A stretch of 34,980 bases of DNA from Deltaproteobacteria bacterium (GCA_011051925.1 DRKE01000369.1:1-34980); one strand, 5' to 3'; positions 7,592 to 30,514 are shown, counted from the first letter of the stretch. Translations and numbers: made by a program. Notes: generated from the sequence alone by a model not told the origin.

Positions 7592-7632
7592 ATCGACTCT
7601 TTCCCTCCCCGACCCCACGGAGAACCACAACC

Positions 7633-8148: not shown

Positions 8149-8265
8149 ATGGACGGGAACGCGACGATCGGGCACGGTCCCGATCGGCACCCGGCGGCCT
8201 GGAATCCCGCCAGGACGCGCGAAGAAAAAGAAGAGCAAGGAAGAAGGAAAGAAGAAAGGAGCCCC

Positions 8266-8619
8266 ATGCCCCCCGTCACGATCATGGAACTACTTGAAAA
8301 GTGCAAGGAGAAGACGGCGCTCTGTGACGCACGAGAGGCTGCCCACCGGATCAAGAACGATGGGGATCTCGTCCTGATCGATGTTCGCGAACCAGGCGAA
8401 TTCGAAGAGAATCCCGTTCCCGGCGCCGTCAACATCCCCCGCGGATTCCTGGAATTCAAGATCTGCGAAACCTGCCCGGAAGATCATGCTCCGATCCTGC
8501 TCCACTGTCGGACGGGAGGTCGTGCGGTCCTCGCCGCGAAGACCCTCGCGGAGATGGGCTACCGCAACGTCGCCGCCTACCAGGGGACCGTCGACGAATT
8601 GCTCGCGGCACTCGAATAG
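8266..8619 (+). CDS. Single-domain rhodanese (sulfurtransferase)
   Basis: LIDVREPGEF, PGAVNIPRGFLEF, active loop CRTGGR and LAEMGY. AAGGAG RBS before ATG 8266. Confidence 0.93.
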   Translation: MPPVTIMELLEKCKEKTALCDAREAAHRIKNDGDLVLIDVREPGEFEENPVPGAVNIPRGFLEFKICETCPEDHAPILLHCRTGGRAVLAAKTLAEMGYRNVAAYQGTVDELLAALE

Positions 8620-15351: not shown

Positions 15352-16608
15352 TCAGGCGGCCGGTCGGATCTTGTATCGGATGGGCAGCGTCTTGTACCCG
15401 ACGACGAAGCTCGACTCGATCAGGCTCGGGTCGGCCGCCGGCTCGACGTGTTCGATCCGGGTCGCGAGCTCACGGAAGAGCGCCCGCGCGCTGAGCCTCG
15501 CCACGTGGGATCCCAGACAGAAATGCTCACCGGTTCCGAATCCCAGGTGCCTGTTCGGTTGGCGTCGGATATCGAACTCGAAGGGTCTGTCGAAGACCGA
15601 TTCATCACGGTTCGCGGAAGCATAGAAGAGCGCCAGATCCTCCCCCTTCTTCATCTTCACGCCATGCATCTCCACATCCTCCAGCAGATGCCGCCGCATG
15701 TAGTTCACGGGCGTCGTCCAGCGAACGATCTCTTCGAAGGCCGGTTTCGTCAGCTCGGGATCATCGCAGAGGCGTTCCAGCTGTTCGGGATTCTCGAGGA
15801 GCGCCGCCATCCCGCCCGCGATCGCGTTTCTCGTCGTGTCGTGGCCGGCGGTGAAGACGATCAGGAAATACCCGAAGGTCTCGATCGGAGGCATCGGCGA
15901 CCCGTCCGCCATCTTCGCGTTGGCGAGCAGGCTCGCGAGATCGTCTCGGGGATTCGCGCGTCGATCCTCGATGATCCGGGCGAAGAGCCCCATGAACTCG
16001 GCCCCGAGGGCCATGATCGCTTCTTTCCGATCCTCGCCTTCGCGCTGGAGATCGGGATCTTCCGAAGCGAAGAGCTGTTGCGTCAAGGAGAGGACGAGCT
16101 CTTCGTCATCACGATCGATGCCGAGAATCGTCGCCAGGACGCGGAGGGGATGTCGCTGGGCGATCGCCTCGACGAAATCGCATTCCCCCTCGTCGCCGAG
16201 CTTGTCGACCTGTTCGCGAGCGCATTCCGTCACGATGTCGTCCAGACGATGGATGCTACGCGGCGTGAAGAACCCGCTCGCCACCTTCCGGAACTCCCGA
16301 TGCTCCGGCGGGTCCATGTCGATGATGCTGCGCATGGCGGCAAAGGGGCTCTCGGTCTTCTCGAGTTCCGCCTTCTGTTCGCGGTTCAACAGGACTGCAC
16401 CCTGCGTGTTGCTGAAGATCTCCGGCCGGCTGGAAATCTCGACGATGTCCGCGTGCCGCGTGATCGTATAGAAGGGCGGGAAGGTCTCCGTCTCGCAGCG
16501 CCAGACCGGTGCATTCTGGCGAAGCCAGGTCCAGGCCTCGTGGGGTTGTCCGGAAACGCCGTAGTGGCTCGGAACGATCAGATCGTCGGGATCGAAATCT
16601 GGGGACAT
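15352..16608 (-). CDS. Cytochrome P450 (CYP108-like I-helix)
   Basis: MDPPEH, I-helix FTAGHDTT, EEIVRW (ExxR), SANRDE and haem motif FGTGEHFCLG. Confidence 0.96.
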   Translation of the reverse strand: MSPDFDPDDLIVPSHYGVSGQPHEAWTWLRQNAPVWRCETETFPPFYTITRHADIVEISSRPEIFSNTQGAVLLNREQKAELEKTESPFAAMRSIIDMDPPEHREFRKVASGFFTPRSIHRLDDIVTECAREQVDKLGDEGECDFVEAIAQRHPLRVLATILGIDRDDEELVLSLTQQLFASEDPDLQREGEDRKEAIMALGAEFMGLFARIIEDRRANPRDDLASLLANAKMADGSPMPPIETFGYFLIVFTAGHDTTRNAIAGGMAALLENPEQLERLCDDPELTKPAFEEIVRWTTPVNYMRRHLLEDVEMHGVKMKKGEDLALFYASANRDESVFDRPFEFDIRRQPNRHLGFGTGEHFCLGSHVARLSARALFRELATRIEHVEPAADPSLIESSFVVGYKTLPIRYKIRPAA

Positions 16609-16782
16609 CGGATCACACTCCTTGGCTTCGAGGCACCTGTTCCGACTCGGCCGTCCCGGACGTCATCCTCCGCGCCATCAGCCGATCGCTTCGTGGCGGG
16701 AGGGCCATCGTCGCCTCCGCCTGCGCTCGAGAATGGATTATGGCATAGTGCGTGTCGATAGAAAAACACGCCGGAGGCCCGC

Positions 16783-17913
16783 ATGAATACCCGCCTGGCT
16801 CGCGATCTCGGTCTCGAATTCCCGATCTTCGCCTTCACCCATTGCCGGGACGTCGCGGCCGCCGTCTCGAAAGCCGGGGGAATGGGCGTCTTCGGCGTCG
16901 CCGCCCATTCGGCGGAAGGGCTTCGCGCCGAACTCGAGTGGATCGAAAAGGAGGTCGGAGACAAGCCCTATGGCGTCGACCTCCTCCTCCCCACGCGATT
17001 CGTCGGCAGCGACAAGAAGGGCGGCCTGAATGACGCCGAGCTCGACGCGAAGATTCCCGAGACGCATCGACGATTCGTGAAGAACCTGCTCGATGAGTTC
17101 GAGGTTCCGCCGCTTCCGCCCGACGTCGATACTTCGGGAACCCTGGGTGTCGGCTACGAACGCCAGAAGGACGTGATCGAACTCCTCTTCCAGCATGATA
17201 TCAGCCTGATCGCGAGCGCCCTCGGTCCACCCCCGGCCTGGATGATCGACATGAGTCGGGACAAAGGGGTCAAGGTCGCGGCGCTCGCCGGGACGGTCGA
17301 GCACGCGAAACGACACGTCGAGGCCGGTGTCGACATCGTGGTCGCCCAGGGCTACGAAGCCGGCGGTCATACGGGCCAGATCGCGACGATGGTGCTGGTT
17401 CCCGAGGTCGTCGATGCGGTCGATCCGATTCCCGTCCTGGCGGCAGGCGGCATCGGGAGTGGCCGACAGATCACCGCAGCCCTCGCCTTGGGCGCCCAGG
17501 GCGTCTGGCTGGGCTCGCTCTGGCTGACGACCGAAGAGGCCGAAACCCACCCGGTCGTGAAGGAGAAATTCCTGAAGGCCTCGTCGAGCGACACGATCCG
17601 CAGTCGCTCGCTCACGGGAAAGCCCGCGCGGCAGCTCCGTAGTGCCTGGACCGACGCCTGGGAGGATCCGTCGAATCCCGATCCCCTTCCCATGCCCCTC
17701 CAACCCCGTCTGGTCCGCGAAGCCCAGGCCCGCATCTCGCGTACGGCGCATAAGTCGAAGGGCGCCGCCCAGCTGAGCAACTACTTCGTGGGGCAGATCG
17801 TTGGATCGATGAACCACACGAAATCCGTACGCACGGTGATGGAGGAGCTCGCGGTCGGGTATGCCGACACCATGGAGCGCCTCGACGAGTGGGCCCGGGG
17901 CGAAGAGGCCTGA
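16783..17913 (+). CDS. Nitronate monooxygenase / FabK-like FMN oxidoreductase
   Basis: FPIFAFTHCRDVAAAVSKAGGMG, PYGVDLL, VAQGYEAGGHTG, VLAAGGIGSG and ALGAQGVWLGS. GGAGG RBS. Confidence 0.92.
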   Translation: MNTRLARDLGLEFPIFAFTHCRDVAAAVSKAGGMGVFGVAAHSAEGLRAELEWIEKEVGDKPYGVDLLLPTRFVGSDKKGGLNDAELDAKIPETHRRFVKNLLDEFEVPPLPPDVDTSGTLGVGYERQKDVIELLFQHDISLIASALGPPPAWMIDMSRDKGVKVAALAGTVEHAKRHVEAGVDIVVAQGYEAGGHTGQIATMVLVPEVVDAVDPIPVLAAGGIGSGRQITAALALGAQGVWLGSLWLTTEEAETHPVVKEKFLKASSSDTIRSRSLTGKPARQLRSAWTDAWEDPSNPDPLPMPLQPRLVREAQARISRTAHKSKGAAQLSNYFVGQIVGSMNHTKSVRTVMEELAVGYADTMERLDEWARGEEA

Positions 17914-18149: not shown

Positions 18150-18166
18150 TTGGCATCGGTCTTGCT
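18150..18166 (+). promoter_or_regulatory. Sigma-54 (RpoN) -24/-12 promoter upstream of maf
   Basis: TTGGCAT-CGGTC-TTGCT, with GG(18152-18153)-N10-GC(18164-18165), matching TGGCAC-N5-TTGCW. It lies about 70 bp before the start codon. Confidence 0.75.
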
Positions 18167-18237
18167 CCTTCCCTTCCGACCGATCCCCGGGCCGCGGCCC
18201 TGGCGGGCCGTTCGGGATCATCGGTCGGGGAGGAAAC

Positions 18238-20226
18238 TTGGGCTCACGAGCCGTCTTCGAAAGAAATCTCGCCGCGATCCGCAAGCGGAGCCCGCAGCTC
18301 GCGGACGCCCTGGCGAAGACGGATGCCGCGGGGATCGAGGAAGTCGAAGGACCACGCGGCGCCGTCGTCCTGCGCGAACGGGGCGTGCTTCTCGGATCCG
18401 CCTACGATCCGAAGCGGGAGGCGGAACAGATCGCCGAGACCATGGCTTCGGAACCCGCCGACATCATGGTCGCGATCGGATTCGGCCTGGGCGACCAGTT
18501 CCCGCACTATTGCGAGCAGAACCCGGCGACCGTGATCGTCTTCGAGCCCTCGGTGGCGCGGCTCCGAGCAGCACTCCATCGCTTCTGCTTGACGAATCTC
18601 TATGCGACGAATCGGGATTTCTACATCACGACGGATCTCGAACACTTCTCCCGCCTCCTCGATCATCGCTATTTCCCCGGCCTGCGCATCCGGGTCTTCC
18701 CGCATCCCGCCGTGCTCCGACTCGACCCCGAGGCCGTCGGGCGGGCGGTCGAACGGACCCGTCGCGTGAAGGACGCCGCCGACACGGGAAGGATCACGAC
18801 GATCGAACGAATGATGCCCTGGGCACGCCTGGTCGCGGGAAATGGCCGGCGGATCGCTTCCTCCGCGAGCCTTCGCGCGCTGGTGGGTCCCTTCGAAGGC
18901 AAGCCCGCCGTCATCGTCGCCGCCGGACCTTCCCTCGACAAGCAACTCCCCCTCCTGAAGGAGCGGGAAGACCACGTTCTCATCATCGCCATCGGCCAGA
19001 CCGTGAAGGCCCTCGCCGCCGCAGGGATCACGCCGCATCTCGTACATGTCCTCGAAAGCCGGAACGTCTCCCATCAGTTGACGGACGGGGGCGATTCGCG
19101 GGAGCTGAACGTCGTGCTCTCCCCGGATTGCCATCCAGCCATCTACGACGTCCCGGTTCGCGGTTCCTTCGTCGCGACACCGAGCGTCAATCCGATGGGA
19201 GCCTGGATCGAGACGGTTCGCGGAGACCCCTGCCTCACGATCGGCGGGGGTACGGTCGCCCTGGGTGCCGTTGCCGTCGCACAGGCCCTCGGGTCGGATC
19301 CGGTCATGTTGATCGGCCAGGATCTCGCGTTCACCGAAGGGCGTGCCTACGCGAAGAATTCGGCCTACGACTTCGTCGGCGTCGAGCTTTCGGAAGACGG
19401 AGAGTGTTCCTTCACGAACGGGAAGCGGAAGGTCGCCCTGCTCGGCGACGAAGACGTCGACCGGGTTCGCGATCGGTTCTCCCGATCCGACGTGGTCTGG
19501 GTCGACGGCTGGCACGAAGGCGAGCGGGTTCCGACCTGGCGCGCCTACGCCTCGTTCATCGAGCAGTATCGCGACGCGGGACTCTTCCTGGCCCAGTCGG
19601 GAATCCGACTGGTGAACTGCACCGAAGGGGGCGCGCGCATCCCCGGAATCGAGCACCTCGCTTTTCGAGAAGTCCTGGACGCGCTTCCGAGCGACTCCCT
19701 GGAGGCTTTCGCGACGATCGATCGCGCCTTCCGCGAGGCACCGCGACACGACCTCTCCGATTTCGCGGACGCGATCCGGAAGGCGCGCCGATCCCTCGAG
19801 CGGATCGAGCAGGAGTCCAGGAAGGCCCTCCGCTTCGCGAAGCGAAACGGGTCGAGGCTTCTCCGGGGGAAGGACGACCAACAGACCATCGACGTGCTCC
19901 GTCGGCTGGCTCGCCATGAGAAGAAGCTCCGAACGCAACTGGATCGGATGCCCTGGCTCGACGCGCTCGTCCAGCCGGAGATCTACAGCGCGATGGCCGC
20001 ATCCCGGAGGACCGAGCGCCAGGACCCCGGCCTCGAGGAACTTCTCGAGGAGTCACTCTTCCTCTTCGAAGCCGTCTGCCATGGGGTCGTACGCGCGCGA
20101 TCCTGGTTCGATCACTTCGAGGCTTCCTTCGACGAGGGAGCGGGCAACGGGGCCGGCCCGGATCGGCGAGAGGGAAAACCGGTCCGGCGGACCGATTCCC
20201 CGGATCTCGCGGCCGTCGCGCCCTGA
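18238..20226 (+). CDS. maf: Motility associated factor (Maf) family glycosyltransferase (DUF115/MptE-like core)
   Basis: FERNLAAI, S.YDP..EAE, GFGLG, VIVFEP, core KPAVIVAAGPSLDKQLPLLK, GITPHLV, GGTVA, MLIGQDLAF and NCTEGGARIPG, with a helical C-terminus. TTG start with GGGGAGGA RBS. Confidence 0.88.
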   Translation: MGSRAVFERNLAAIRKRSPQLADALAKTDAAGIEEVEGPRGAVVLRERGVLLGSAYDPKREAEQIAETMASEPADIMVAIGFGLGDQFPHYCEQNPATVIVFEPSVARLRAALHRFCLTNLYATNRDFYITTDLEHFSRLLDHRYFPGLRIRVFPHPAVLRLDPEAVGRAVERTRRVKDAADTGRITTIERMMPWARLVAGNGRRIASSASLRALVGPFEGKPAVIVAAGPSLDKQLPLLKEREDHVLIIAIGQTVKALAAAGITPHLVHVLESRNVSHQLTDGGDSRELNVVLSPDCHPAIYDVPVRGSFVATPSVNPMGAWIETVRGDPCLTIGGGTVALGAVAVAQALGSDPVMLIGQDLAFTEGRAYAKNSAYDFVGVELSEDGECSFTNGKRKVALLGDEDVDRVRDRFSRSDVVWVDGWHEGERVPTWRAYASFIEQYRDAGLFLAQSGIRLVNCTEGGARIPGIEHLAFREVLDALPSDSLEAFATIDRAFREAPRHDLSDFADAIRKARRSLERIEQESRKALRFAKRNGSRLLRGKDDQQTIDVLRRLARHEKKLRTQLDRMPWLDALVQPEIYSAMAASRRTERQDPGLEELLEESLFLFEAVCHGVVRARSWFDHFEASFDEGAGNGAGPDRREGKPVRRTDSPDLAAVAP

Positions 20227-20258
20227 CGATACGCCCGTGAGACCCGATCAGATCCCGA

Positions 20259-22052
20259 TCATGCGTTCCTGATCCCCGCGATCCGGTCGGCGATTCCCTT
20301 CGCATCGAGACCGTAGGCCGCCTCGAGTTCGGCGTTGCTTCCCGCTTCGATGAAGCTCGCTGGAAGACCGATCTGGACGAGTTCCCGGTCGTTCTCCCCG
20401 GCAGAGAAAAGCAGGGAAGCGACCGCCGATCCGACCCCTCCGTCGAGAACGGCTTCTTCGACCGTGACGACGCGAGCATGGTCGCGGATCTTCTCGAGGA
20501 GCGCCGCTTCGGGAAGGGGCTTCAGTCTCCGCAGGTTGACGACTCGTGCCTCGATTCCCCTGTTCGCGAGAAGCTCCGATGCCTCGAGACAGGCCCGGAC
20601 CTTGTTGCCGACGGCGACGATCGCCACGTCCGGACCGTCTCGAACGATCTCGGGCTCGAAGAGTGTCCCGCCGCGGGCATCTTCGGCGGCGGGATCGATC
20701 GAATCCGCTGGTCCGTAGGGCATCATGACCAGGACGGGCCCCTCGATCGTTTCGAGAATCTCCCGGACCATCGCCCGCGCCTCATGGCGGTCCTTCGGAT
20801 AGAAGATCTCCAGATTCGGGATCGGGCGCAGATAGGCGATGTCGTAGATGCCATGGTGGGTGGGATTGTCGTAGCCGCTGAAGCCGCTCCGATACGAGAG
20901 CATCAGACAGGGACGATTCGCGAAAGCCACGTCGTGGATGATCTGATCGAAAGCACGCTGCAGGAAGGTCGACTGATAGGCGATGATCGGCAGCTTCCCG
21001 GCCAGGGAGAACCCCACGCACATGGAGAGCGCGTGTTGTTCTTCCATCCCGGGATCGAAACAGCGTTCCGGGTACTTCTCGAAGACTCCAGCCAGGCCTG
21101 TCGCGTAGAGCGTCGAGGGCGTGATGCAGACCGCATCGCGATTCGCCGCCATGAAGCCGTCGATCACTTCCGCGACCACCTCGGGATAGCCGGGAGCGGG
21201 CGTCGAGGCATCCCGCGGCGTGCCGGACACCGGATCGAAGGGAAAGGAGAAATGCAACCGGAAGGGATGATCGTCGGCCGGGGCCCAGCCCTTTCCCTTG
21301 ACCGTGCGCGCATGCACGAGGCTGAGCCCGTCTGCCGCCTTGGCTGCCTCGAGGGCTTCCATCAGGTCCCCGATCGAATGCCCATCGACGCGCCCGAGAT
21401 AATTCGCGCCGAGACTCCCGAAATAATCCCTTGCCCGCCCCGCCTCGCCCTGCAACATCTCGTGAAAGGCACCGAATCCGGGACTGATCGCATAGCCATT
21501 GTCGTTCAGGAGAACGATCAGGTTCGTCTTTTCGACGATCGCATGGTTGAAGGCTTCGAGGGAGATCCCCTCGACGAAGGCGCCATCGCCCACCGTCGCG
21601 ACGACATGGGAGGGATCATGGTCGAGCTTCCGTGCCAGCGCCAATCCCAGCCCCACGGAAATGGCGGTACCCGCATGAGAAGACTCGATCAGGTCGTGAG
21701 GGCTTTCGGTCGGCGTCAGGAAACGATTCATTCCGCCATGGCGGTTCAGTGACGGAAAGAGGCCAGCTCGTCCGGTGAGCAACTTGTGCGTGTAGCCCTG
21801 ATGACCGGTATCGAAGAGGAGTGCGTCCCGGGGCGTCTCGAAACAGGCGTGGAGAGCGATCGTCAATTCGACCGTCCCGAGGTTGGCTCCGATATGGCCT
21901 CCCGTCTTCGAGACATGGTCGAGCAGGAAACGCCGGACCTGCGTCGCCAGATCTTCCAGCTCGGACAGTCCGCATCGACGCAGCGGCGATGGATCCGCGA
22001 GCCGTGTCAATTCGATCGGGCCCGCCTCGTGGATCGGGAGTTGTGCACTCAA
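20259..22052 (-). CDS. Divergent DXS-like ThDP-dependent carboligase
   Basis: GGHIGANLGTVELTIALH, FDTGHQGYTHKLLTGR, ThDP motif GDGA...LLNDN, VDGH, TVKGKG, EQHA, STFLQRAFDQ, and a transketolase C-terminal domain. TTG start with GAGGGG RBS. Confidence 0.9.
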   Translation of the reverse strand: MSAQLPIHEAGPIELTRLADPSPLRRCGLSELEDLATQVRRFLLDHVSKTGGHIGANLGTVELTIALHACFETPRDALLFDTGHQGYTHKLLTGRAGLFPSLNRHGGMNRFLTPTESPHDLIESSHAGTAISVGLGLALARKLDHDPSHVVATVGDGAFVEGISLEAFNHAIVEKTNLIVLLNDNGYAISPGFGAFHEMLQGEAGRARDYFGSLGANYLGRVDGHSIGDLMEALEAAKAADGLSLVHARTVKGKGWAPADDHPFRLHFSFPFDPVSGTPRDASTPAPGYPEVVAEVIDGFMAANRDAVCITPSTLYATGLAGVFEKYPERCFDPGMEEQHALSMCVGFSLAGKLPIIAYQSTFLQRAFDQIIHDVAFANRPCLMLSYRSGFSGYDNPTHHGIYDIAYLRPIPNLEIFYPKDRHEARAMVREILETIEGPVLVMMPYGPADSIDPAAEDARGGTLFEPEIVRDGPDVAIVAVGNKVRACLEASELLANRGIEARVVNLRRLKPLPEAALLEKIRDHARVVTVEEAVLDGGVGSAVASLLFSAGENDRELVQIGLPASFIEAGSNAELEAAYGLDAKGIADRIAGIRNA

Positions 22053-22276
22053 ATCGGATTCCCCTCGGCCCGCGTCGGATCGGGGCCCTGACCGGTCATC
22101 GGGAAAGCCCTTGTTTTTCTTTACATTGCGCCGGGAAGGCGCGGCTCGGTTGCCGGACCCGGCCGAGCCGGCATGACACCCGGCACGAACTCCGGAGAAC
22201 CCCCCAGAAAATCCGTCTCCCGATCGGAAAGACCGAGCGGATCCGCAATTTTGGATCTCCTCGAATCACGCCATCT

Positions 22277-22284
22277 GCCGATAG
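22277..22284 (+). promoter_or_regulatory. Possible sigma-28 (FliA) -10 element upstream of the ATP-grasp operon
   Basis: GCCGATAG is a 7/8 match to GCCGATAA, 75 bp before ATG 22360. The -35 match is poor. Confidence 0.35.
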
Positions 22285-22359
22285 GCAGGGGGAACGCAGG
22301 GAGAGAAGCATGACGACACGCAGGGGCAACCGACCTCTTCTTCCGCGAAGCCCGGAAGC

Positions 22360-23694
22360 ATGACCGGAAACGCGCGAACGCTCGTCGTTCTGGGCGCGAG
22401 TACCGATCAGCTCTTCCTGATCGAGACGGCGCAGGCACTCGGCCTGCGTGTCCTCGCCGTGGACCGGGATGCCGACGCCCCCGGGTTTGCCGTGGCCGAG
22501 GAATCGGCGCTCATCAGCACCCGGGACGTCGCCGGGATCTGCGCTCATCTCGATCGACTCGAGAAGGACGAAGGCGCGGTCTTCGCGGGGGTCACGACGA
22601 TGGGAAGCGACATTCCCGAGATCGTCGCCGCGATCGCCGGGCATCTGGGGACGCCCTCCATTCCCCTCGAAGCGGCTCGATTGACCGTCGACAAGTTCGC
22701 GATGAAGGTGCGTCTTCGCGAATGCTCGATTCCGATCCCCTGGTTCCGGGAAGTTCCCGGCGTGGAAGACCTGCTCGAGGTGATCGCGGATCGAGGACTT
22801 CCCCTCGTCATCAAACCGATCGACCGCTCGGGGTCCCGGGGCGTCTTCTTCCTCCGCCCGGGCTGCGACCCCACGGATCTCTTCCAGAAGGCGAAGGCCT
22901 TTTCGTTCTCGGGTCGCGTCCAGGTCGAGGAATATCTTCCCGGGCCCCAGATCAGCACGGAAACGATCCTCTACGGTGGGCGGGCGGTCACCCCGGGTTT
23001 CGCCGATCGGAACTACGACACCTTCGAGCGGTTCCTTCCCCAGATCATGGAAAACGGAGGATGGGTCCCTTCCCTCCTCTCGGCCGAGGAACGGAAGCAG
23101 GTGGAAGAGCTGGTCGTCTCGGCTTCCCTCGCATTGGGCATCTCGGAGGGCGTCACGAAGGGGGACGTCGTGATGACACCCGAGGGCCCCAGGATCATCG
23201 AGATTGCCGCCCGCCTGAGCGGCGGTGACTTCTGCGCGGGACTGGTCCCTCTCGGATCGGGCGTCAACTACGTCCGGACCGCGATCCAGATCGCGATCGG
23301 CGAGACGCCGGATCTCGACGCCCTCGCACCCCGTTTCGAGAGAGCCGTCGCGAATCGTTATTTCTTTCCCGAACCGGGCCGTCTCGTCCGGATCGAGGGC
23401 GTCGAAGCCATTCGCGCGAGGCCCTGGCTCCACAAACTCGAATTCTGGTACCGACCCGGGGAGATCGTTCCCGAAAGCCTCAGCCATGCCCATCGGTTCG
23501 GGGTCTTCGTCGTGAGCGCGCCGGATCGCGCGACGGCCCAGGCAAGGGTCGACGAGGTCTACGACACGATCCGGATCGTGACGAGGCCCGAGAAGGCAGC
23601 CTCGAGGACCCGTCCGGAATCCTCGTTCCCGCCGGACAGGCCATCGGCCGTCGCGACCCGCCCCGGGGCGATCGCGTCCGGGACTCGAGGATGA
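22360..23694 (+). CDS. ATP-grasp ligase 1
   Basis: VVLGASTDQ, DKFAMK, PLVIKPIDRSGSRGV, VEEYLPGPQIS, KGD and IIEIAARLSGG, plus an LAL_C2-like C-terminus (FFPEPG...HRFG). Confidence 0.9.
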   Translation: MTGNARTLVVLGASTDQLFLIETAQALGLRVLAVDRDADAPGFAVAEESALISTRDVAGICAHLDRLEKDEGAVFAGVTTMGSDIPEIVAAIAGHLGTPSIPLEAARLTVDKFAMKVRLRECSIPIPWFREVPGVEDLLEVIADRGLPLVIKPIDRSGSRGVFFLRPGCDPTDLFQKAKAFSFSGRVQVEEYLPGPQISTETILYGGRAVTPGFADRNYDTFERFLPQIMENGGWVPSLLSAEERKQVEELVVSASLALGISEGVTKGDVVMTPEGPRIIEIAARLSGGDFCAGLVPLGSGVNYVRTAIQIAIGETPDLDALAPRFERAVANRYFFPEPGRLVRIEGVEAIRARPWLHKLEFWYRPGEIVPESLSHAHRFGVFVVSAPDRATAQARVDEVYDTIRIVTRPEKAASRTRPESSFPPDRPSAVATRPGAIASGTRG

Positions 23695-23695
23695 A

Positions 23696-24916
23696 ATGGT
23701 GACGGTACCCGTCCGCTCGGGAGCCCTCGAATGGATCCACGTCGATTGCCCGCTCTGCGGGGCCGACGATGCCGAACCCGTCTATGAACGTGACCACGAG
23801 ACCGGTTCGACCCTCGGTCGACTCCGCAAGATCGACGTCCTCTGCCGCCGATGCGGATTCATGTACACCGACCCGCGACCGTCAGCCGCGGACATGCGTC
23901 GCTATTATGCGGAGGCCAGCGGCGCTTCGGGAAGCGTCTTCCACGCGATGGAGCCGGGCTCTCGGCTGCGCGGATTGATCGAGGAGCGTGCGGCCTTCAT
24001 GCAACCGCTCGTCGCTTCCCACTTCGGATCGGGACCCGGCGCGATCCTCGACATCGGATGCGCGACCGGCGACCTGCTCGAACACCTCGATCTTCCGGAA
24101 TGGCACAAGGCCGGGCTCGAGCCTTCGGCCAGAGCCTCCGCGACAGCCCGGACGCGCGGCCTCGAAGTCGAATGCGGGGATCTCGAGTCGACGTCGCTTC
24201 CCGACCGGAGCTTCGACGTCATCACATGCATCAGCGTGCTCGAACACGTCCACGATCTCCGGGCCTCGGTCGGACGGATCCGGCAGAGCCTCCGACCCGG
24301 AGGCCTGGCCTTCGTCGAAGTCCCCGACTCGACGCGGCCCGTGGCGCAGATCGCGGAGTTCTTTTCCTTCGAGCATCTCTCCCATTTCACGCGGGGAACG
24401 CTGGTCCGCTGTCTCGCGGAGGCCGGACTCGAAGCGATCGCCTTCGACGAACAGGTCGGCCTTCCCAACCTGCGCGTATGCGCACGGCGAAGCGAGCAGA
24501 TTCCCGCAAAGGCCGCCTTCGGAACGGACGATGCCGAAGCGCTTCGCCGGGCCATCGCTCGCTATCGTCGGCAACGCGAGGCCTTCGCGGAGACGCTCAC
24601 CCGCCGGCTGAACGATCGGGTCGACCGCTGGGCGACCCGGGATGCCCGCGTGGCGGTCTACGGCGCGGGCATGCACACGCGTTTCCTGATGGAGGTCGTC
24701 GATCTCGGCCGATCGGTCACATGTCTTCTCGACAGCGATCCGCGCAAGGCGGGAAGTTCGTTTCTCGGCTGGCGGGTCTTCGGACCGGACGACATCCCGC
24801 GACTCGGGCTGGACGCGATCCTGATTTCGACCAATGCCTTCGAGGAGGAGGTCTACTCGGCCATCGCCCCCACGGCGCGCGCACACGCGATCGAGGTCGT
24901 GCGGTGTTACGGATGA
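23696..24916 (+). CDS. SAM-dependent methyltransferase with NDP-sugar C-methyltransferase-like architecture
   Basis: N-terminal CPLC...CRRC Zn motif, ILDIGCATG, SVLEHV, FVEVP, EHLSHF, and C-terminal VAVYGAG...LDSDPRKAG domain. Confidence 0.85.
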   Translation: MVTVPVRSGALEWIHVDCPLCGADDAEPVYERDHETGSTLGRLRKIDVLCRRCGFMYTDPRPSAADMRRYYAEASGASGSVFHAMEPGSRLRGLIEERAAFMQPLVASHFGSGPGAILDIGCATGDLLEHLDLPEWHKAGLEPSARASATARTRGLEVECGDLESTSLPDRSFDVITCISVLEHVHDLRASVGRIRQSLRPGGLAFVEVPDSTRPVAQIAEFFSFEHLSHFTRGTLVRCLAEAGLEAIAFDEQVGLPNLRVCARRSEQIPAKAAFGTDDAEALRRAIARYRRQREAFAETLTRRLNDRVDRWATRDARVAVYGAGMHTRFLMEVVDLGRSVTCLLDSDPRKAGSSFLGWRVFGPDDIPRLGLDAILISTNAFEEEVYSAIAPTARAHAIEVVRCYG

Positions 24917-26028
24917 ACCGGGGCGGAACCCCGCGAAGGAACGACCCACGGAAGAGCCTGCTCGTCTACGGAGCCGGACGGAACCAGCTGCCCCTTCTCG
25001 CAGCCGGAAGGCGCAGGGGATGGCGCATCATCGCGATCGACCGTGACGCCGGAGCGCCCGGCCGCTCCCTCGCCGACCGTTTCCTGTGTCTCAGCCTGCG
25101 CGATCACGAAGCGATCGTGAAGGAACTGGCGTCCGAGAAGATCGTCGGGGTGGTCGCGCGAATCACCGATCACGTCGGCCTCGAGTCCGCCTGCCGGATC
25201 GCCCGTGACCAGGGTCTCGCCTCCGTCTGTCCCGGTCTCTTCGCCGCGGCGACCCACAAGACGGCCCTGGCCCGCCAGTGCCGACGCGCTGGCCTGCGCA
25301 CCCCCGAACGCCGTTCAGCGAGTGATCCGGACCTCTTCGAGAAGGGCCCCATCCTGTTGCGACCCGACGTGACGATCCGGGGGAAGGCCGGCATCCGCCG
25401 GGTCCGGTCCGTGGAAGCCCTCGAACTCGCGCTTCCCGAGACCCGTTCGCGATCGGGAAACGGAGAGGTCGACCTCGCGGATTGGATCGACGGCACGGAC
25501 GTCTCGATTCTCGTCCAGCTCGATCGGGGCCACGGACGGCGACTCGCCTTGTGGGACGAGTGGGTCGCACTCGATGCCGAGGGGATGATCCGGGGCGTCG
25601 GCTGCGGCATGCCCTCGGTCTTCGAGGAGGACCCGACCTCGATCGATCGGGTCATCGACCGATTGGCCCGCGCCTTTCCCGAAAGCCGTGGCCTGATCGC
25701 CCTCTCCCTTCGCATCGACGCGGCGAACCGGCCCTGGATGATCGAGATCCATCTGGGAATCGGCGGCGACGGCATCGCGGACCGCCTCCTGCCCGCGGCA
25801 CTGCCGGGTTTCGATGCGTTCGAGCTCCTCGCCCGGACGCAGGCCGGCGAACGGGTCGACCCGCCGCCTGCTCGCGCGCGACCTCGCGCATTGCTGCGGG
25901 ATGGGGAGGGCGGAGCATGGCGGATCGTCGAAGCCCGGGATGCCGCGACGCTGCGCGCCCGATGTCTCGCCTCGCTGCCCCGGGATTGGGAGGCGCCCCG
26001 GGGCCTGCTTCCGGGGACGAAGCCATGA
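24913..26028 (+). CDS. ATP-grasp protein 2 (degenerate motifs)
   Basis: LLVYGAGRNQ, THKTAL, LLRPDVTIRGKAGI, DWIDG and MIEIH. ATGA overlap with the upstream gene; C-terminal part of track ORF 23851..26028. Confidence 0.78.
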   Translation: MNRGGTPRRNDPRKSLLVYGAGRNQLPLLAAGRRRGWRIIAIDRDAGAPGRSLADRFLCLSLRDHEAIVKELASEKIVGVVARITDHVGLESACRIARDQGLASVCPGLFAAATHKTALARQCRRAGLRTPERRSASDPDLFEKGPILLRPDVTIRGKAGIRRVRSVEALELALPETRSRSGNGEVDLADWIDGTDVSILVQLDRGHGRRLALWDEWVALDAEGMIRGVGCGMPSVFEEDPTSIDRVIDRLARAFPESRGLIALSLRIDAANRPWMIEIHLGIGGDGIADRLLPAALPGFDAFELLARTQAGERVDPPPARARPRALLRDGEGGAWRIVEARDAATLRARCLASLPRDWEAPRGLLPGTKP

Positions 26029-27218
26029 GACGCGGGGTCGTCCAGCTGGGCGCGGGTCCCGTCCAACGCGGGCTGCTCGAACGCTTCCGCGAAAACGGCC
26101 TGGTCCCGATCCTCGTCGACCGGAACGAGCGACCCGCCGGCCGCGTTCCCGGAAGCCTCCACGTTCGCGCGCCGATCGACGAGCCGCAGACGATCGTCCG
26201 GGCTCTTCAGGAAGCCCGGTCGGATCGGCGGCTGGCCGGAGTCGGGATCGGCGCCGTTCTCACGAGCACCGACCTCGGTGTCGCGAGCGTCCCGGTCGTC
26301 GCGAGAGCCCTCGACCTGCCGCATGCCTCGATCGATTCGATCGCCACGATGGACGACAAGGCCCTTGCGCGACGGGTGCTCTCCGAAGCGGGAGTCCGCG
26401 TACCGGAGGGATGGCTCGGCCGACGCCCCTGCGACATTCCCGCCCTCGAAACCGACCGCGAGTGGATCGTGAAACCCGTCGACTCTTCGGGCAGCCGCGG
26501 CGTCAGGCGCATCCGGGGCCCGGTCGCCCTGGCCCATGCGATCGAGAACGCCCTCGCCTTCAGCGACCGCTTCCTCGTCGAGGAATGCATCGACGGGATC
26601 CATCTCGACATCAACGGTCTGGTCATCGACGGCCGGTTCGAGCTGGTTTCGATCGGCCGGCGGCATTTCACGAGGCCCCCCGCCTGCGTGCCGATCCATG
26701 GCGGAATCGCCGGTGGCTGGAGCGCATCGCTCGCCGAAGAGGTCGTCCGGCTGATGCAGGCCTCCGTTGCGGCCTTCGACTATCGCCATGGCCCCGTGAA
26801 GGCCGATCTCATCCAGGACGAGCGCGGTCTCGTCGTCCTCGAACTGGCCGCCCGTTTCCATGGGGACGTCTTCTCCCATCACGTCGCCGAAGCAGCCGGA
26901 CGGCCTCCCGCCGCCCTCGTCTGGCTGGCGCGCCTGGGACTCTGCCCGAAGCCGGTGGAAGGACCCCGCCACGGGGGCTGGTTCGGCGTCTTCGCCGAGA
27001 AGGCCGGCACGATCCGGGCGATCGAGGGACTCGACGAGGTCCGCTCGCTTCCCGGCTTCCGGACCTGGATCCCCCGGCTCGGTCCGGGCGACCCGGTCGG
27101 CTCGCCCGAGGACAACCGAGCCCTCGTGGGCTTCGGGCTGATCGGTTTCGACCGGACGGAAGATCTCTGGGCGGAAGCCGATCGGCGGCGGCAGATGATC
27201 CGGGTGGCGCTCGACTGA
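26025..27218 (+). CDS. ATP-grasp ligase 3
   Basis: QLGAGPVQ, DDKALAR, WIVKPVDSSGSRGV, LVEECIDG, GPVKAD and LELAARFHG, with an LAL_C2-like tail. ATGA overlap with the upstream gene. Confidence 0.88.
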   Translation: MRRGVVQLGAGPVQRGLLERFRENGLVPILVDRNERPAGRVPGSLHVRAPIDEPQTIVRALQEARSDRRLAGVGIGAVLTSTDLGVASVPVVARALDLPHASIDSIATMDDKALARRVLSEAGVRVPEGWLGRRPCDIPALETDREWIVKPVDSSGSRGVRRIRGPVALAHAIENALAFSDRFLVEECIDGIHLDINGLVIDGRFELVSIGRRHFTRPPACVPIHGGIAGGWSASLAEEVVRLMQASVAAFDYRHGPVKADLIQDERGLVVLELAARFHGDVFSHHVAEAAGRPPAALVWLARLGLCPKPVEGPRHGGWFGVFAEKAGTIRAIEGLDEVRSLPGFRTWIPRLGPGDPVGSPEDNRALVGFGLIGFDRTEDLWAEADRRRQMIRVALD

Positions 27219-27243
27219 TCGTCGAAGGGAAACGGTTCGGACG

Positions 27244-27286
27244 GACGGGTCCCGACCTGGACCGGCCAGGAGAATCCCGACCCGTC
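27244..27286. terminator. Nested stem-loop between convergent genes (possible bidirectional terminator)
   Basis: GACGGGTC...GACCCGTC outer arms with an inner CCTGG-N5-CCAGG stem. No U-tract. Confidence 0.35.
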
Positions 27287-27327
27287 ATCCGCGTCGAGCC
27301 AGGACGGGGCATCCGCCGGATCCCGCC

Positions 27328-28086
27328 CTATCCCATGAACTGTCCACCGTTCACGTTCAGGACCTGTCCCGTCACGAAGGCCGCGTCATCCGAGGCGAGA
27401 TAGACCGCCGCGGCGGCCACGTCGCCCACCTCGCCGATCCGGCCCAACGGAAGGCCTGCGGCGATCTCGCGCTCTTCGTCTTCGAGCAGGTGTTGGATCA
27501 TCTCCGTCCGGATGAAACCCGGCGAGATCGCGTTCACGCGAACGCCCATCGGCCCCAGGATCCGTGCACAGGATTTCGTGAGCGCGAGGATCGCGGCCTT
27601 CGAGGCCGAATAGTGCGGTGCTTTCGGTCCGCCGAACTGACCGCCGACGGAGGCGATGTTGATCACGACCCCCGAGCCCGCGGCTTCGAAGCGACGGGCG
27701 GCGGCCTGGGTCGCAAAGAACGTGCCCTTGAGATTCGTGTCGAGGGTCCGCTCGTAGCTTGCCTCCGTGATCTCCAGGAAGGGTTCCTGCGCGAGATGAC
27801 CGGCGTTGTTCACCAGGATGTCGAGGCTCCCCAGGCATTCGTCGATCGTTCCGAAGACCTTTTCGAGGCTCGACAGCTTCGTCACGTCGAGTTCGAGACA
27901 GAGCGCGTCGCCGAGCTCCCGGGCGAGCGCACGAGCGCGTTCTTCTTCCCTGCGATAGGTGACGACGACCCGGGCGCCCTCCTCGTGGAAGGCGCGGGCG
28001 ATCTCGGCGCCGATGCCCCGGGCTGAACCCGTGACGAGGGCGACGCGATCCATCAGTCGACGACCGGCTCCCAGACGATCGAGCAC
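27328..28086 (-). CDS. SDR family oxidoreductase (FabG-like)
   Basis: VALVTGSARGIG, ILVNNAG, NIAS, YSASK, VNAISPGFIRT and VTGQVLNVNGG. GTG 28086 follows GGGAGG; alternative start ATG 28053. Confidence 0.93.
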   Translation of the reverse strand: MLDRLGAGRRLMDRVALVTGSARGIGAEIARAFHEEGARVVVTYRREEERARALARELGDALCLELDVTKLSSLEKVFGTIDECLGSLDILVNNAGHLAQEPFLEITEASYERTLDTNLKGTFFATQAAARRFEAAGSGVVINIASVGGQFGGPKAPHYSASKAAILALTKSCARILGPMGVRVNAISPGFIRTEMIQHLLEDEEREIAAGLPLGRIGEVGDVAAAAVYLASDDAAFVTGQVLNVNGGQFMG

Positions 28087-28210
28087 GATTCTTCCTCCCG
28101 GCATGGGACCCCGTCTGCCCCGATCCCGGCATCGGACGCGGACGACACCGCCAATGCCTGATCCGAACGAAGGGCCGCAGCCCGATCGGGCGACGAGCCG
28201 CCCCTCCCGT

Positions 28211-28218
28211 CTATCGGC
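28211..28218 (-). promoter_or_regulatory. Possible sigma-28 (FliA) -10 element upstream of the SDR
   Basis: Minus strand reads TCGG-N15-GCCGATAG, the same octamer as at 22277. Confidence 0.35.
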
Positions 28219-28397: not shown

Positions 28398-28697
28398 TCA
28401 GCCCGGAACGCCGTTCACGAGGATGGCGAAATGGTTCGAGGTCGCCGCGTGTCGTTTGGGAATCAGCGCCTGGTAGTCCCCCGATTCGTAGAGCGCCTTC
28501 GCCTCCTCCTTCGATCCGAAGCGCAGGACGATCGTCTGATGCCCCGCACTTTCGCCTTCGAGCCGCTCGGTCGCAGGATCGAAGGCGATGAGCTGGCAGG
28601 CGTCGCCGATCTTCATGACCGAACCGGCCGAAGCGGAATATTCCGCGTAGCCTTCGGGGTCCTCGACGTTGTAGTTGACGATCAGATAGGCGGGCAT
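28398..28697 (-). CDS. DUF1330 family protein
   Basis: MPAYLIVNYNVEDPEGYAEY, LEG, IVLRFGSKEEAKALYESGDYQ and R...ILVNG. Confidence 0.88.
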   Translation of the reverse strand: MPAYLIVNYNVEDPEGYAEYSASAGSVMKIGDACQLIAFDPATERLEGESAGHQTIVLRFGSKEEAKALYESGDYQALIPKRHAATSNHFAILVNGVPG

Positions 28698-28729
28698 TCC
28701 GAATCCTCGACGGGATAGAATCGTGGGGT

Positions 28730-30514
28730 TTGCGAACATCGGACAATGACCGATCGGGAGGCGCGGCGCCAGCCTCGAGGTGCGGCCGGTCGGAAGAGGG
28801 GTTTCCGCTGTCTCGTCTCGATCTCGCCGTCATCGCTGCCTACCTCGCGATCACGCTCGGCTGGGGTGCGTGGCACGCGCGACGCGCGTCGAGGGACACG
28901 ACCGCCTTTTTCGTCGCCGATCGGACGCTCCCCTGGTGGCTCGCGGGAACCTCGATCGTCGCAACGACCTTCGCGGCGGATACGCCGCTGGCGATCGCCG
29001 GTCTGGTCGCGGTCGATGGCATCTCTGGAAACTGGTTCTGGTGGGCCGACGTCCTGCCCGTCGTGATCGGCACCTTCATCGTGAGCCATCTCTGGCGTCG
29101 CAGCCGGGTCCTCACGGACAACGAGATCTCTGAACTCCGCTATGGCGGCCGCCCCGCCGCCGGGCTTCGCCTTTTCCGGGCGCTCTATTTCGGCGTGCTT
29201 CGCAACGCGATCGTGATGGGCTGGGTGAACCTCGCCATGGTGAAGATCCTTTCGCTGGCCCTCGGATTGGACGAGGAGGCCAGTGGGCTCGTCCTCGCCG
29301 GACTCTTCGCCCTGACGGTGCTCTATACGCTTCTCTCGGGCCTGCTCGGCGTCGTGCTCACCGATTTCCTGCAATTCGGACTCGCCCTCATGGGTGGGGT
29401 GGCGCTGGCCTTCCTCGCACTCGAGGAAGTCGGTGGGCTCGGCCACCTCGTCGAAGCGTTCCGCCTTGCCCCCGACGTCCTGCGGCTCGTTCCGTCGCCC
29501 GGAAACAACGAGGCCTTCTGGGCCTTCGTCGCCTATGTCGGCGTCAAGAGCTGGTCGAGCGGCAATACCGAGGGCAGCGGCTACGTCGCCCAGCGGATCC
29601 TGTCGACGCGCAGCGAGAGGGACGCCCGTCTGGCTTCCCTCTGGTATGCGATCGCCCATTTCGCCCTGCGGCCATGGCCCTGGATCATCGTCGGACTCGT
29701 CGCCCTCGTCCGCTTTCCCGGCCTCGAGGATCCCGAGGCCGGCTATGTGCGGGTGATGCTCGAGGTCCTGCCGAGCGGGCTTCTGGGCCTCGTGCTGGCC
29801 GCGTTCTTCGCTGCCTACATGTCGACGATCGATACCCAGCTGAACTGGGGCGCTTCCTATCTCACGCATGACGTCTATGAACGCTTCCTCGATCCCGGGG
29901 CCTCGCAGGCGAGACGGATCGTCGTCGCACGGGCGAGCGTCGTGCTCCTCGCCACAGCGGGCGTCGGCGCCACCCTCGCCATGGATTCCATCGCTGGAGC
30001 CTGGAGATTCCTGGCGATGATCAGCGCGGGAACGGGGCTCGTCGGACTCCTTCGCTGGCTCTGGTGGCGGATCAACGCGTGGAGCGAGATCGCCGTCATG
30101 ACCGCCTCGCTCCTGGGCGCGAACCTCGTCGGCGTCTTCAGTGACATCGCCTTCCCCTTCTCTCTCGTGCTCGTCGTCCTCTTCGCGCTCCCCATCGCCT
30201 TCGCGGTCACCCTGGCGACGCCACCCGAGGAGGCCGCCACGCTGAAGGCCTTTTTCGTTCGTGTCCGACCCGCGGGCGCCTGGGCGCCCGTCGCTCGGAT
30301 GACCGGGCTTCCCTGCCGACGGATCGGTCTCCGCCCGTGGCTCGACGTCGCCGCCGCCACCTTCGGCATCTACGCCGCCATCGCGAGCACGGGCTGGCTC
30401 CTCTTCGGAGAATCGTTCCGGGGAGTGCTGGCGGGCGGCCTGGCGATCGGACTGCTCGCCTTCTCGATCCAGGGGGCCGAGGCCTGCCCGGCTGCCGAAT
30501 CCCGAAGGCGCTGA
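28730..30514 (+). CDS. Sodium:solute symporter family transporter
   Basis: FFVADRTLPWWLAGTSIVATTFAADTPL, ELRYGG, SGLLGVVLTDFLQF, QRILS, LRPWPW and AAYMSTIDTQLNWGASY. Start uncertain: TTG 28730 or CTG 28808. Confidence 0.92.
   Translation: MRTSDNDRSGGAAPASRCGRSEEGFPLSRLDLAVIAAYLAITLGWGAWHARRASRDTTAFFVADRTLPWWLAGTSIVATTFAADTPLAIAGLVAVDGISGNWFWWADVLPVVIGTFIVSHLWRRSRVLTDNEISELRYGGRPAAGLRLFRALYFGVLRNAIVMGWVNLAMVKILSLALGLDEEASGLVLAGLFALTVLYTLLSGLLGVVLTDFLQFGLALMGGVALAFLALEEVGGLGHLVEAFRLAPDVLRLVPSPGNNEAFWAFVAYVGVKSWSSGNTEGSGYVAQRILSTRSERDARLASLWYAIAHFALRPWPWIIVGLVALVRFPGLEDPEAGYVRVMLEVLPSGLLGLVLAAFFAAYMSTIDTQLNWGASYLTHDVYERFLDPGASQARRIVVARASVVLLATAGVGATLAMDSIAGAWRFLAMISAGTGLVGLLRWLWWRINAWSEIAVMTASLLGANLVGVFSDIAFPFSLVLVVLFALPIAFAVTLATPPEEAATLKAFFVRVRPAGAWAPVARMTGLPCRRIGLRPWLDVAAATFGIYAAIASTGWLLFGESFRGVLAGGLAIGLLAFSIQGAEACPAAESRRR

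Follow-up and report, generated by a model that had tools for sequence, protein, structure and literature searches.

Nonulosonic acids on flagella and other surface structures are chemically very diverse, and few of the enzymes that make their unusual N-substituents are known. The canonical pathway to pseudaminic acid (Pse), known from Campylobacter, Helicobacter and Aeromonas, comprises PseB, PseC, PseH, PseG, PseI and PseF, together with Maf, PseD or PseE. The subject of this analysis is an island of seven genes (positions 18150–28218) on a contig of 34,980 nucleotides from a deltaproteobacterium (GCA_011051925.1, DRKE01000369.1), in which a putative Maf-type transferase gene lies beside genes for a thiamine diphosphate (ThDP)-dependent paralogue of DXS, three ATP-grasp proteins (AG1, AG2 and AG3), a methyltransferase (MT) and a short-chain dehydrogenase/reductase (SDR). 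The whole contig, C369 of the host assembly, is called the window below. We consider it probable that the island tailors a Pse-type nonulosonic acid and that Maf puts the finished sugar on flagellin.

The nearest described system is that of Shewanella oneidensis MR-1, where sfmABCDE (SO_3261–SO_3265) adjoin the maf gene SO_3259 (Bubendorfer et al., 2013; PMC3765264). According to that paper, the sfm products are a NeuB-like protein, an IlvB-type ThDP enzyme (581 residues), an SDR (255 residues), a methyltransferase of 395 residues that uses S-adenosylmethionine (SAM) and an ATP-grasp protein (412 residues). Deletion of sfmA–D abolishes the mass shift of flagellin, while deletion of sfmE reduces the shift and the filament remains. 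The glycan has two parts, an inner 274-Da residue like mono-N-acetylated Pse and, outside it, a moiety that contains no nitrogen and has a mass of 236, 250 or 264 Da (C9H16O7 with none to two methyl groups; PMC3765264). A preprint of 2023 deals with the two Mafs and the adaptor GlfM and not with these enzymes (10.1101/2023.12.03.569772). Literature searches listed no paper about how the enzymes of such a module work, and as far as these searches show, no enzymology of the sfm operon has appeared since 2013. The preliminary description had called the island a candidate undescribed one, and 'undescribed' is too strong: the composition of its core equals that of sfmABCDE with maf, whose part in flagellin modification was demonstrated genetically in 2013 (PMC3765264). 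The island is therefore undescribed only in part. Judged by composition, gene sizes and context, its core appears to be the same kind of module as sfmBCDE with maf.

The host (genome G000) is an uncultured bacterium known from a metagenome-assembled genome (MAG) of 4.4 Mb in 552 contigs, with 66% G+C and an estimated completeness of about 92%. All seven contiguous genes that the preliminary description had announced lie where it placed them, with families matched by Pfam, NCBIfam or fold, and they are carried by three transcription units. The coupled four-gene operon that had been proposed is borne out as well: in AG1-MT-AG2-AG3 (22360–27218) the AG1 stop and the MT start are one base apart, and MT and AG2, like AG2 and AG3, overlap by ATGA, so that the four genes are translationally coupled. 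The naming of three ATP-grasp ligases holds for AG1 and AG3 by Pfam and, because the predicted model of AG2 has the ATP-grasp fold, for AG2 at the level of fold; the C-methyltransferase-like enzyme is upheld by profile and by full-length fold matches to MtmC, TcaB9 and KijD1.

Related loci were gathered by a profile search for the MT family in the species collection with a single peptide pattern, which gave six loci, and the sample was then widened. The MT profile gave 21 matches in 193 genomes of the window's order, its own genome included, and AG1 gave 11 matches in 401 genomes of the phylum of genome G004; in the window's phylum, orthologues of AG1 (E ≤ 1e-60) occur in 15 of 401 genomes, again with its own included, all of them in the window's order. 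Up to 20 kb was fetched around 15 of the 20 MT matches outside the own genome and around 18 AG1 matches; the MT matches left out were those of G125, G149, G138, G028 and G186, with G138 and G028 on contigs shorter than 4 kb. AG1 is held at 230 bits or more by 31 of the 38 fetched stretches (numbered with L below), and since the genomes are kin and were picked via the cassette's own genes, the counts are descriptive and carry no test. An SDR adjoins AG1 in 24 of these 31 AG1 loci, and 24 have a ThDP enzyme at most 3 kb away. Within the fetched stretch, 17 loci have a pse gene or Maf, all of them among the 28 whose stretch is 11 kb or longer; Maf itself is present in 9 and a GH57-like gene in 14.

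The linkage of ThDP enzyme, SDR, AG1 and MT with pse and maf genes is plain in other lineages. In a Smithella MAG (L015), genes for a PglF-like protein, an ABC transporter, PseB, PseC, NeuB, a PseF-PseG fusion and a small methyltransferase are followed by the cassette in the order MT, AG2, AG3, SDR, DXS paralogue, AG1 and GH57-like gene. In a Pelobacter MAG (L014), Maf with TPR repeats, PseB, PseC, NeuB, an SDR, an aldo-keto reductase, a cytidylyltransferase and an unnamed gene precede MT, AG2, a small methyltransferase, an acetolactate-synthase (ALS)-type ThDP enzyme, SDR, AG1, a formyltransferase and the GH57-like gene. The order Maf-PseI-PseF-ALS-SDR-AG1-GH57-like-MT is shared by L039, L042 and L043, and by L038 with no GH57-like gene at that place; L041 has the run from PseI to MT as in L038, with Maf and the GH57-like gene not in the fetched stretch. 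PseB-PseC-PseF-PseI-MT-transketolase-SDR-AG1-GH57 is read in L058. On plasmid pDCAR1 of the cultured Solidesulfovibrio carbinolicus DSM 3852 (L073), RefSeq names a neuB-family gene, pseF, a cytidylyltransferase, a small methyltransferase and FabG, then the N and C subunits of a transketolase, a methyltransferase, an ATP-grasp protein, a glycoside hydrolase, pseB and pseC. Both maf and neuB or pse genes lie beside the cassette in L038, L039, L042, L043, L014 and L071. The synteny with maf and glycan genes that the preliminary description had asked for stands for other families of the order, for Desulfobacterota and for the Solidesulfovibrio plasmid, often beside maf, but not for the nearest relatives, in which cassette and glycan genes are mostly apart; among these only L045, of the same genus, has Maf near the DXS paralogue, SDR, AG1 and an MT-like gene. 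The ThDP-SDR-ATP-grasp-methyltransferase module is mobile and recurs in pse loci, both in at least two phyla and on the plasmid of a cultured Solidesulfovibrio.

The position beside SDR and AG1 is occupied by three ThDP families, DXS-like, ALS-like and split-transketolase-like, which is a case of non-orthologous replacement. The DXS paralogue stands there in L011, L012, L015, L036, L045, L055, L057, L065 and L066. ALS- or transketolase-type enzymes take its place in L014 (13118–14812), L037–L043, L049, L056, L058–L061, L063, L069 and L073 (8981–10749), with the ALS type in L014 and L037–L043. Three unrelated ThDP families in one slot argue for a shared function in C2 transfer. These interchangeable families, the DXS clade among them, are defined candidates for study in vitro.

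Some further features of these loci may be mentioned. A GH57-like open reading frame of about 650–690 residues (PF03065, E 6e-17 and 5e-13) stands behind AG1 or PseC in the 14 AG1 loci already counted; its positions include L014 (18469–20433), L015 (17320–19377) and L073 (13230–15200, 'glycoside hydrolase' in RefSeq), and it also belongs to the host's own pse locus (C99, 11968–13890, and C424, 22–393). L059 (G786, contig C36) holds two AG1 paralogues, two transketolase-like genes, a GH57-like gene and Maf in one locus, maybe a duplicated tailoring module. The island itself seems to be a mosaic: L045 has the closest counterparts of its DXS paralogue, SDR and Maf (76, 76 and 68% identity), L011, L012 and L036 have those of AG1, MT, AG2 and AG3 (52–64%), with AG1 and MT only 48 and 30% identical to their L045 counterparts, and its gene order is unlike both that of L045 and that of L011, L012 and L036.

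The Maf gene (18238..20226, plus strand) encodes 662 residues from a TTG start behind GGAGG. Its product scores 108 bits against PF01973 (MptE-like/DUF115; cut-off 34.6) over residues 207–367, 21.5 bits against PF20157 (Maf N-terminal domain; cut-off 23.5) and 67 bits, far under the cut-off of 670, against NF050051 (PseD), and it matches PDB 5mu5 at E 5.8e-6 in the core only. It is 68% identical to the Maf of L045 and 58–61% identical to the Mafs of the pse loci L051 and L053, where the orthologue sits between the GH57-like gene and pseI. These likenesses point to a putative nonulosonate transferase acting on flagellin.

Flagellar and nonulosonate genes, which the preliminary description had suggested looking for in the host, are indeed there on other contigs. 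Four flagellin-domain matches (two on C99, one each on C418 and C288) and one NeuB match (C424) were found, and the window's Maf is the only MptE-like match in the genome. On C99, pseB and pseC lie directly behind a flagellin gene (tblastn with L014 and L015 proteins as queries); the run goes on into the GH57-like gene, leaves the contig end and resumes on C424, which also carries a small methyltransferase gene, a PseG-like gene and pseI, while pseF is the first gene of C2. PseH (TIGR03585) was not found at E ≤ 1e-5 in the host or in G001 and G002, genomes that are incomplete, so that this absence is no proof. Among the genomes of L011–L015, NeuB is present in five of five and Maf and flagellin in four of five; those of L011 and L012 carry several flagellin genes.

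The DXS paralogue (20259..22052, minus strand, 597 residues; PF13292, PF02779, PF02780 and TIGR00204) scores 505 bits against TIGR00204 (cut-off 466) and 448 against NF003933 (cut-off 395), and matches DXS structures in the PDB at E 1e-112. A canonical DXS is also encoded in the host, on C298, with an N-domain score of 364 bits against 228 for the paralogue. The paralogue differs from this DXS, as do the orthologues in L011, L012, L015, L036 and L045: IYST is YQST, FPRG is MPYG, and a loop of about 30 residues is absent. All of them retain GGH, AEQH and LQR, together with the Arg, Asp and His of DRAG, ADG and THxG, respectively. Glyceraldehyde-3-phosphate is held in E. coli DXS by Y392, R420 and R478. 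In the paralogue R420 is kept, the Y392 column has Q and the R478 column has Y (MPYGP against FPRGA in the host's own DXS), and because these columns are changed the protein is not classed as a DXS. Of 157 aligned sequences, made up of the best 150 of 1.84 billion representatives and seven locus sequences, 23 combine Q in the Y392 column with an R478 column that lacks a basic residue, and 127 have Tyr with Arg or Lys, which indicates that the sequences with a changed acceptor site form a small clade of their own. In this fast alignment 21 of the 23 show a gap in the R478 column and the other two show Tyr; the Tyr given above for that column comes from a careful alignment of seven sequences. 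As read from the alignments, a DXS clade without two acceptor-site residues appears to be new. The paralogue passes the NCBIfam equivalog cut-offs for DXS although these columns differ; such genes are probably named DXS by automatic annotation, and caution is needed not to count them as genes of the isoprenoid pathway.

Among the ATP-grasp genes, AG1 (22360..23694, plus strand, 444 residues, ATP-grasp_3 and LAL_C2 domains) scores above cut-off against PF18603 (60.7 bits) and PF02655 (33.8 bits) and matches the L-amino-acid ligase of PDB 3vot at 1.7e-12. It has 590 relatives, the best 120 of which are all at least 56% identical to it, and it is the conserved core ligase and probably the counterpart of SfmE. 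An Atlas search with AG1 gave generic ATP-grasp clusters, plus two kinds of fusion that serve only as leads to a substrate class: in Spirochaetota clusters the AG1-like protein is joined to an FMN-dependent alpha-hydroxy-acid dehydrogenase domain (FMN_dh), in Bacillota clusters to a domain of bacterial sugar transferases (Bac_transf). AG3 (26025..27218, plus strand, 397 residues, of the same domain make-up and L-amino-acid-ligase type) scores 46.2 bits against LAL_C2 and 43.3 bits against ATP-grasp_3, both above cut-off, and matches 3vot at 4.3e-9. Close orthologues (at least 200 bits) among the 38 stretches occur only in L011, L012 and L036 for AG3, and only in those three and L065 for AG2.

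AG2 (24913..26028, plus strand, 371 residues) reaches the cut-off of no Pfam family. In a set of 5.8 billion proteins its own family numbers 43 clusters and one distant match, and Pfam domains are absent from all of them. The AlphaFold model, built from an alignment of 29 sequences, has a pLDDT (predicted local distance difference test) of 93.4, and in Foldseek it resembles PurT, PurK, biotin carboxylase and the L-amino-acid ligases 3vot and 4wd3 (E about 1e-17, template modelling score, TM, about 0.65). Where AG1 reads LVIKPID, AG2 reads ILLRPD, with Arg in place of the Lys of the 'KP' strand that AG1 and AG3 both keep; where AG1 reads EIAARLSGGD, AG2 reads EIHLGIGGD, so that its E-x-x-x-R motif is EIHLG against EIAAR and ELAAR in AG1 and AG3. 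Two extra ligase genes, AG2 from a family of only 43 clusters, are new with respect to the known core, as are the pairing of this rare family with the methyltransferase subfamily described next and the expansion to six genes.

MT (23696..24916, plus strand, 406 residues) has a Zn-ribbon, a SAM domain and a C-terminal domain. Class I methyltransferase domains exceed their cut-offs, and the C-methyltransferase C-terminal domain PF08484 scores 20.6, below the cut-off of 23.5. C18, C21, C50, C53, E183, H184, H227 and H230 are invariant in 35 sequences. The PDB structures closest to the profile are MtmC (4.7e-24) and TcaB9 (5.8e-23), then KijD1, and the model (pLDDT 90.7) finds full-length Foldseek matches only in these three (TM 0.63–0.68), all other methyltransferases matching the SAM-binding core alone with a query TM below 0.4. 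On alignment to 4rv9, H184 and E226-H227 fall on H181 and E224-H225 of TcaB9, residues whose mutants (H181, E224, H225) are named in the titles of PDB entries, while the Y222 position is Ser. By architecture and catalytic positions, seen in alignment and model, MT is predicted to be of the nucleoside-diphosphate (NDP)-sugar C3-methyltransferase type; its subfamily is 33–36% identical to the methyltransferases of ALS-type loci. The SDR (27328..28104, minus strand, 258 residues, true start perhaps M18) is a classical, FabG-like ketoreductase with TGxxxGIG and YxxxK motifs, scoring 232 bits against adh_short_C2 and 247 against NF005559 (cut-off 215), and below cut-off against the FabG equivalogs; it is 76% identical to the SDR that adjoins the DXS paralogue in L045.

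Sigma-54-type and FliA-like motifs had also been noted, and they are present before Maf, the DXS paralogue, AG1 and SDR, but their number is not above chance. The -24/-12 motif TGGCATCGGTCTTGC (18151..18165, plus strand) lies 73 nucleotides before Maf with one mismatch to TGGCAC-N5-TTGC; the identical 15-mer stands ahead of the host's pseB (C99:9665), two flagellin genes (C99:7970 and C418:1388) have in front of them the form TGGCATC-N4-TTGC that pseB and Maf carry too, and TGGCATCGGACTTGC precedes the orthologous Maf in L045. Matches to TGGCAY-N5-TTGC number 32 in the 4.4-Mb genome, and in the window there are 17 sigma-54-type matches of the quality of TGGCATCGGTCTTGC against 17.9 expected from shuffles. 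A putative FliA-like motif, TAAAG-N15-CCCGATGA (22096..22123, minus strand), is found about 44 nucleotides before the start of the DXS paralogue with two mismatches to TAAAG-N15-GCCGATAA, and the octamer GCCGATAG, like a sigma-28 -10 element, stands 75 nucleotides before AG1 (22277..22284, plus strand) and about 100 nucleotides before the SDR start (28211..28218, minus strand). In L012, L036 and L011, GCCGATAG or GCCGATAC occurs 9–10 nucleotides before the start of the DXS paralogue; genome-wide, GCCGATAG has 123 copies, about one per 35 kb. The FliA pattern with a fixed N14 spacing is at none of the island sites (two matches in all, 2.4 expected), and a FliA gene is present in the host on C319 (278 bits, cut-off 189.6). 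Between 17800 and 28800 a sigma-70 promoter scan gave no site, and eight terminator-like sites against 5.7 expected are not above shuffles. With counts at chance level, the motifs weigh only by position and conservation and not by number. The same sigma-54-type motif at Maf, pseB and the flagellin genes suggests that these are under common sigma-54 control. The relocation of Maf beside the cassette, under a sigma-54 motif identical to that before pseB, is new.

What might the island make? Within the reading that it tailors a nonulosonate, there is about an even chance that its product is an N-acyl or peptidyl side chain, and a lesser one that it branches the nucleotide-sugar skeleton before ligation, the remainder falling to something else. 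From the enzyme families we infer C–C ligation, keto reduction, C-methylation and amide formation. The Pse pathway encoded on the other contigs would deliver a UDP-4-amino sugar or a Pse core whose second amino group is unacetylated; no PseH was found, and most likely the core would be made without N7-acetylation and the free amine acylated by the ATP-grasp ligases. The DXS paralogue would decarboxylate a 2-oxo acid and transfer the two-carbon unit to a carbonyl compound that is not glyceraldehyde-3-phosphate. The interchangeable ALS, DXS and transketolase slot and the acceptor-site change of the DXS clade support C2 transfer to such an acceptor, and the fusions of AG1-like proteins to the FMN-dependent hydroxy-acid dehydrogenase also bear on this step as a lead only. 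The TcaB9-like MT might then methylate beside the new ketone, or act on a nucleotide-linked keto sugar, and SDR would reduce the ketone. AG1, given its tight coupling to SDR, probably ligates the hydroxy acid from the ThDP enzyme and SDR, using ATP to form an amide between it and the free amine; AG3, and AG2 if it is active, would append further carboxylate or amino-acid units, after which PseF would activate the product and Maf transfer it. The fullest form of this scheme is offered tentatively and is rather unlikely: ATP-grasp ligases would replace the acetyl-CoA-dependent PseH, and an acid made by a neofunctionalised DXS clade, C-methylated and reduced, would N-acylate Pse and be extended by AG2 and AG3. 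If true, a peptide-like branched substituent, chemically undescribed so far, would be carried by a flagellar sugar.

Several points weigh against the reading in which the island tailors a Pse-type sugar that Maf puts on flagellin. The window itself contains no sugar-nucleotide gene, and the promoter motifs, as said, do not exceed chance. The likeness to sfm was judged by composition, sizes and context, from the published description alone. Fourteen of the 31 AG1 loci, three of them contigs shorter than 4 kb, have neither a pse gene nor Maf in the stretch. The nearest relatives are among the loci that have neither in the fetched stretch (L011, L012, L036, L065, L066 and L072), and the genomes to which L011 and L012 belong (G001 and G002) have flagellin, PseB, PseC, the GH57-like gene, Maf and PseI on other contigs. 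The Smithella genome holds the cassette in a pse operon, yet has neither flagellin nor Maf, which implies that the module serves nonulosonate chemistry generally and not flagellin as such. AG2 may be inactive, to go by the usual Lys and Arg of the ATP-grasp motifs that it lacks. Finally, in the Shewanella account no modification is left without the ThDP enzyme or without the methyltransferase, and only a part of it is lost without the ATP-grasp protein, a pattern that fits poorly with a simple scheme of an acid that is made and then ligated.

That same pattern favours a somewhat different course of glycan tailoring, in which the ThDP enzyme, SDR and MT act on the nucleotide-sugar skeleton and the ATP-grasp proteins come late: MT would C-methylate the UDP-4-keto-6-deoxy-HexNAc (N-acetylhexosamine) of PseB, the ThDP enzyme would add a two-carbon branch and SDR reduce it, giving a branched nonulosonate or a second branched sugar. 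YerE and YerF, a ThDP carboligase followed by a ketoreductase, carry out such two-carbon branching of CDP-keto sugars in yersiniose biosynthesis, and the ALS-type enzyme followed by SDR in L014 and L037–L043 is the same pairing. The full-length matches of MT are confined to NDP-sugar C3-methyltransferases, and it retains the Zn-ribbon as well as the E-H and H positions. This course is nonetheless fairly unlikely, since the reported formula of the inner Shewanella residue is simply that of mono-N-acetyl Pse and it is the outer moiety that bears the methyl groups, pseC is kept in the loci, so that the 4-keto group is presumably aminated, and the adjacency of SDR and AG1, the tightest linkage in the sample, suggests that the SDR product feeds the ligase.

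It is improbable that the six-gene cassette makes a free pseudopeptide or dipeptide-like metabolite with no role in a glycan and that Maf is its neighbour by chance. AG1 and AG3 are of the type of dipeptide-antibiotic ligases, with 3vot, BacD and RizA among their PDB matches, AG1-like genes of 32–34% identity are found on Streptomyces, Enterococcus and Parabacteroides plasmids, and in the nearest relatives the full cassette is surrounded by P450 and DUF1330 genes and is apart from pse and maf. But in two phyla and on pDCAR1 the genes for AG1, SDR, the ThDP enzyme and MT are inside pse operons, the cassette has no conserved companion that is a transporter, resistance or regulator gene, the adjacency to Maf recurs in L045 and the sigma-54 motif is conserved, and NeuB is present in all five cassette genomes tested. 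It is harder still to credit that the DXS-like gene simply provides another isozyme of DXS to supply precursors of isoprenoids, thiamine and pyridoxal, and that its clustering is meaningless. The NCBIfam scores above the DXS cut-offs and the preserved cofactor and catalytic positions would suit such an isozyme; against it, the canonical DXS is already on C298, the clade has altered the two acceptor columns that 127 of the 157 sequences keep, and the paralogue adjoins SDR and AG1 in nine loci, with ALS- or transketolase-type substitutes elsewhere.

The flanks of the island (678–2864, 6790–8619, 15352–17913 and 28398–30514) consist of ordinary genes with no visible tie to it: a response-regulator-PAS-GGDEF-EAL protein, a DsrE-like protein, a rhodanese, a P450, a nitronate monooxygenase, a DUF1330 protein and a sodium:solute symporter. 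Homologues of the P450 and DUF1330 genes flank the cassette in L012 and L036 too.

How does the island compare with the known systems? With DXS the paralogue shares the fold and the ThDP machinery, whereas it is a second copy with the Q and Y columns, has no loop of about 30 residues and clusters with glycan genes. MT has the three domains, the four-Cys Zn-ribbon and the His and Glu positions of TcaB9, MtmC and KijD1 (PDB 3ndi, 4rv9 and 5t64), but is only about 16–20% identical to them, has Ser at the Y222 position and falls below the PF08484 cut-off; its context is that of a nonulosonate, theirs that of the dTDP-deoxysugar of an antibiotic. The succession of ThDP carboligase and ketoreductase is common to YerE/YerF, and the ALS-type slot holds YerE's enzyme class, while the window's own enzyme is DXS-type; the yersiniose pathway is not known to include ATP-grasp ligases. 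From the canonical Pse pathway the host has homologues of pseB, pseC, pseI and pseF, flagellins and Maf, and differs from it in that no PseH was found and that the carboligase, reductase, methyltransferase and ligases have no canonical counterpart. The sfm system, as far as its published description goes, differs in its IlvB-type ThDP enzyme, where the window has one of the DXS family, and has neither AG2 nor AG3, both of which are extra in the window; the island has no neuB at the locus (neuB being on another contig), its genes are on three transcription units, and its MT is of the subfamily set apart above from that of the ALS-type loci. What the two have in common is a ThDP enzyme, an SDR, a SAM-dependent methyltransferase of about 400 residues and an ATP-grasp protein beside maf, and the sfm gene order, on the same description, recurs in L038–L043 and on pDCAR1.

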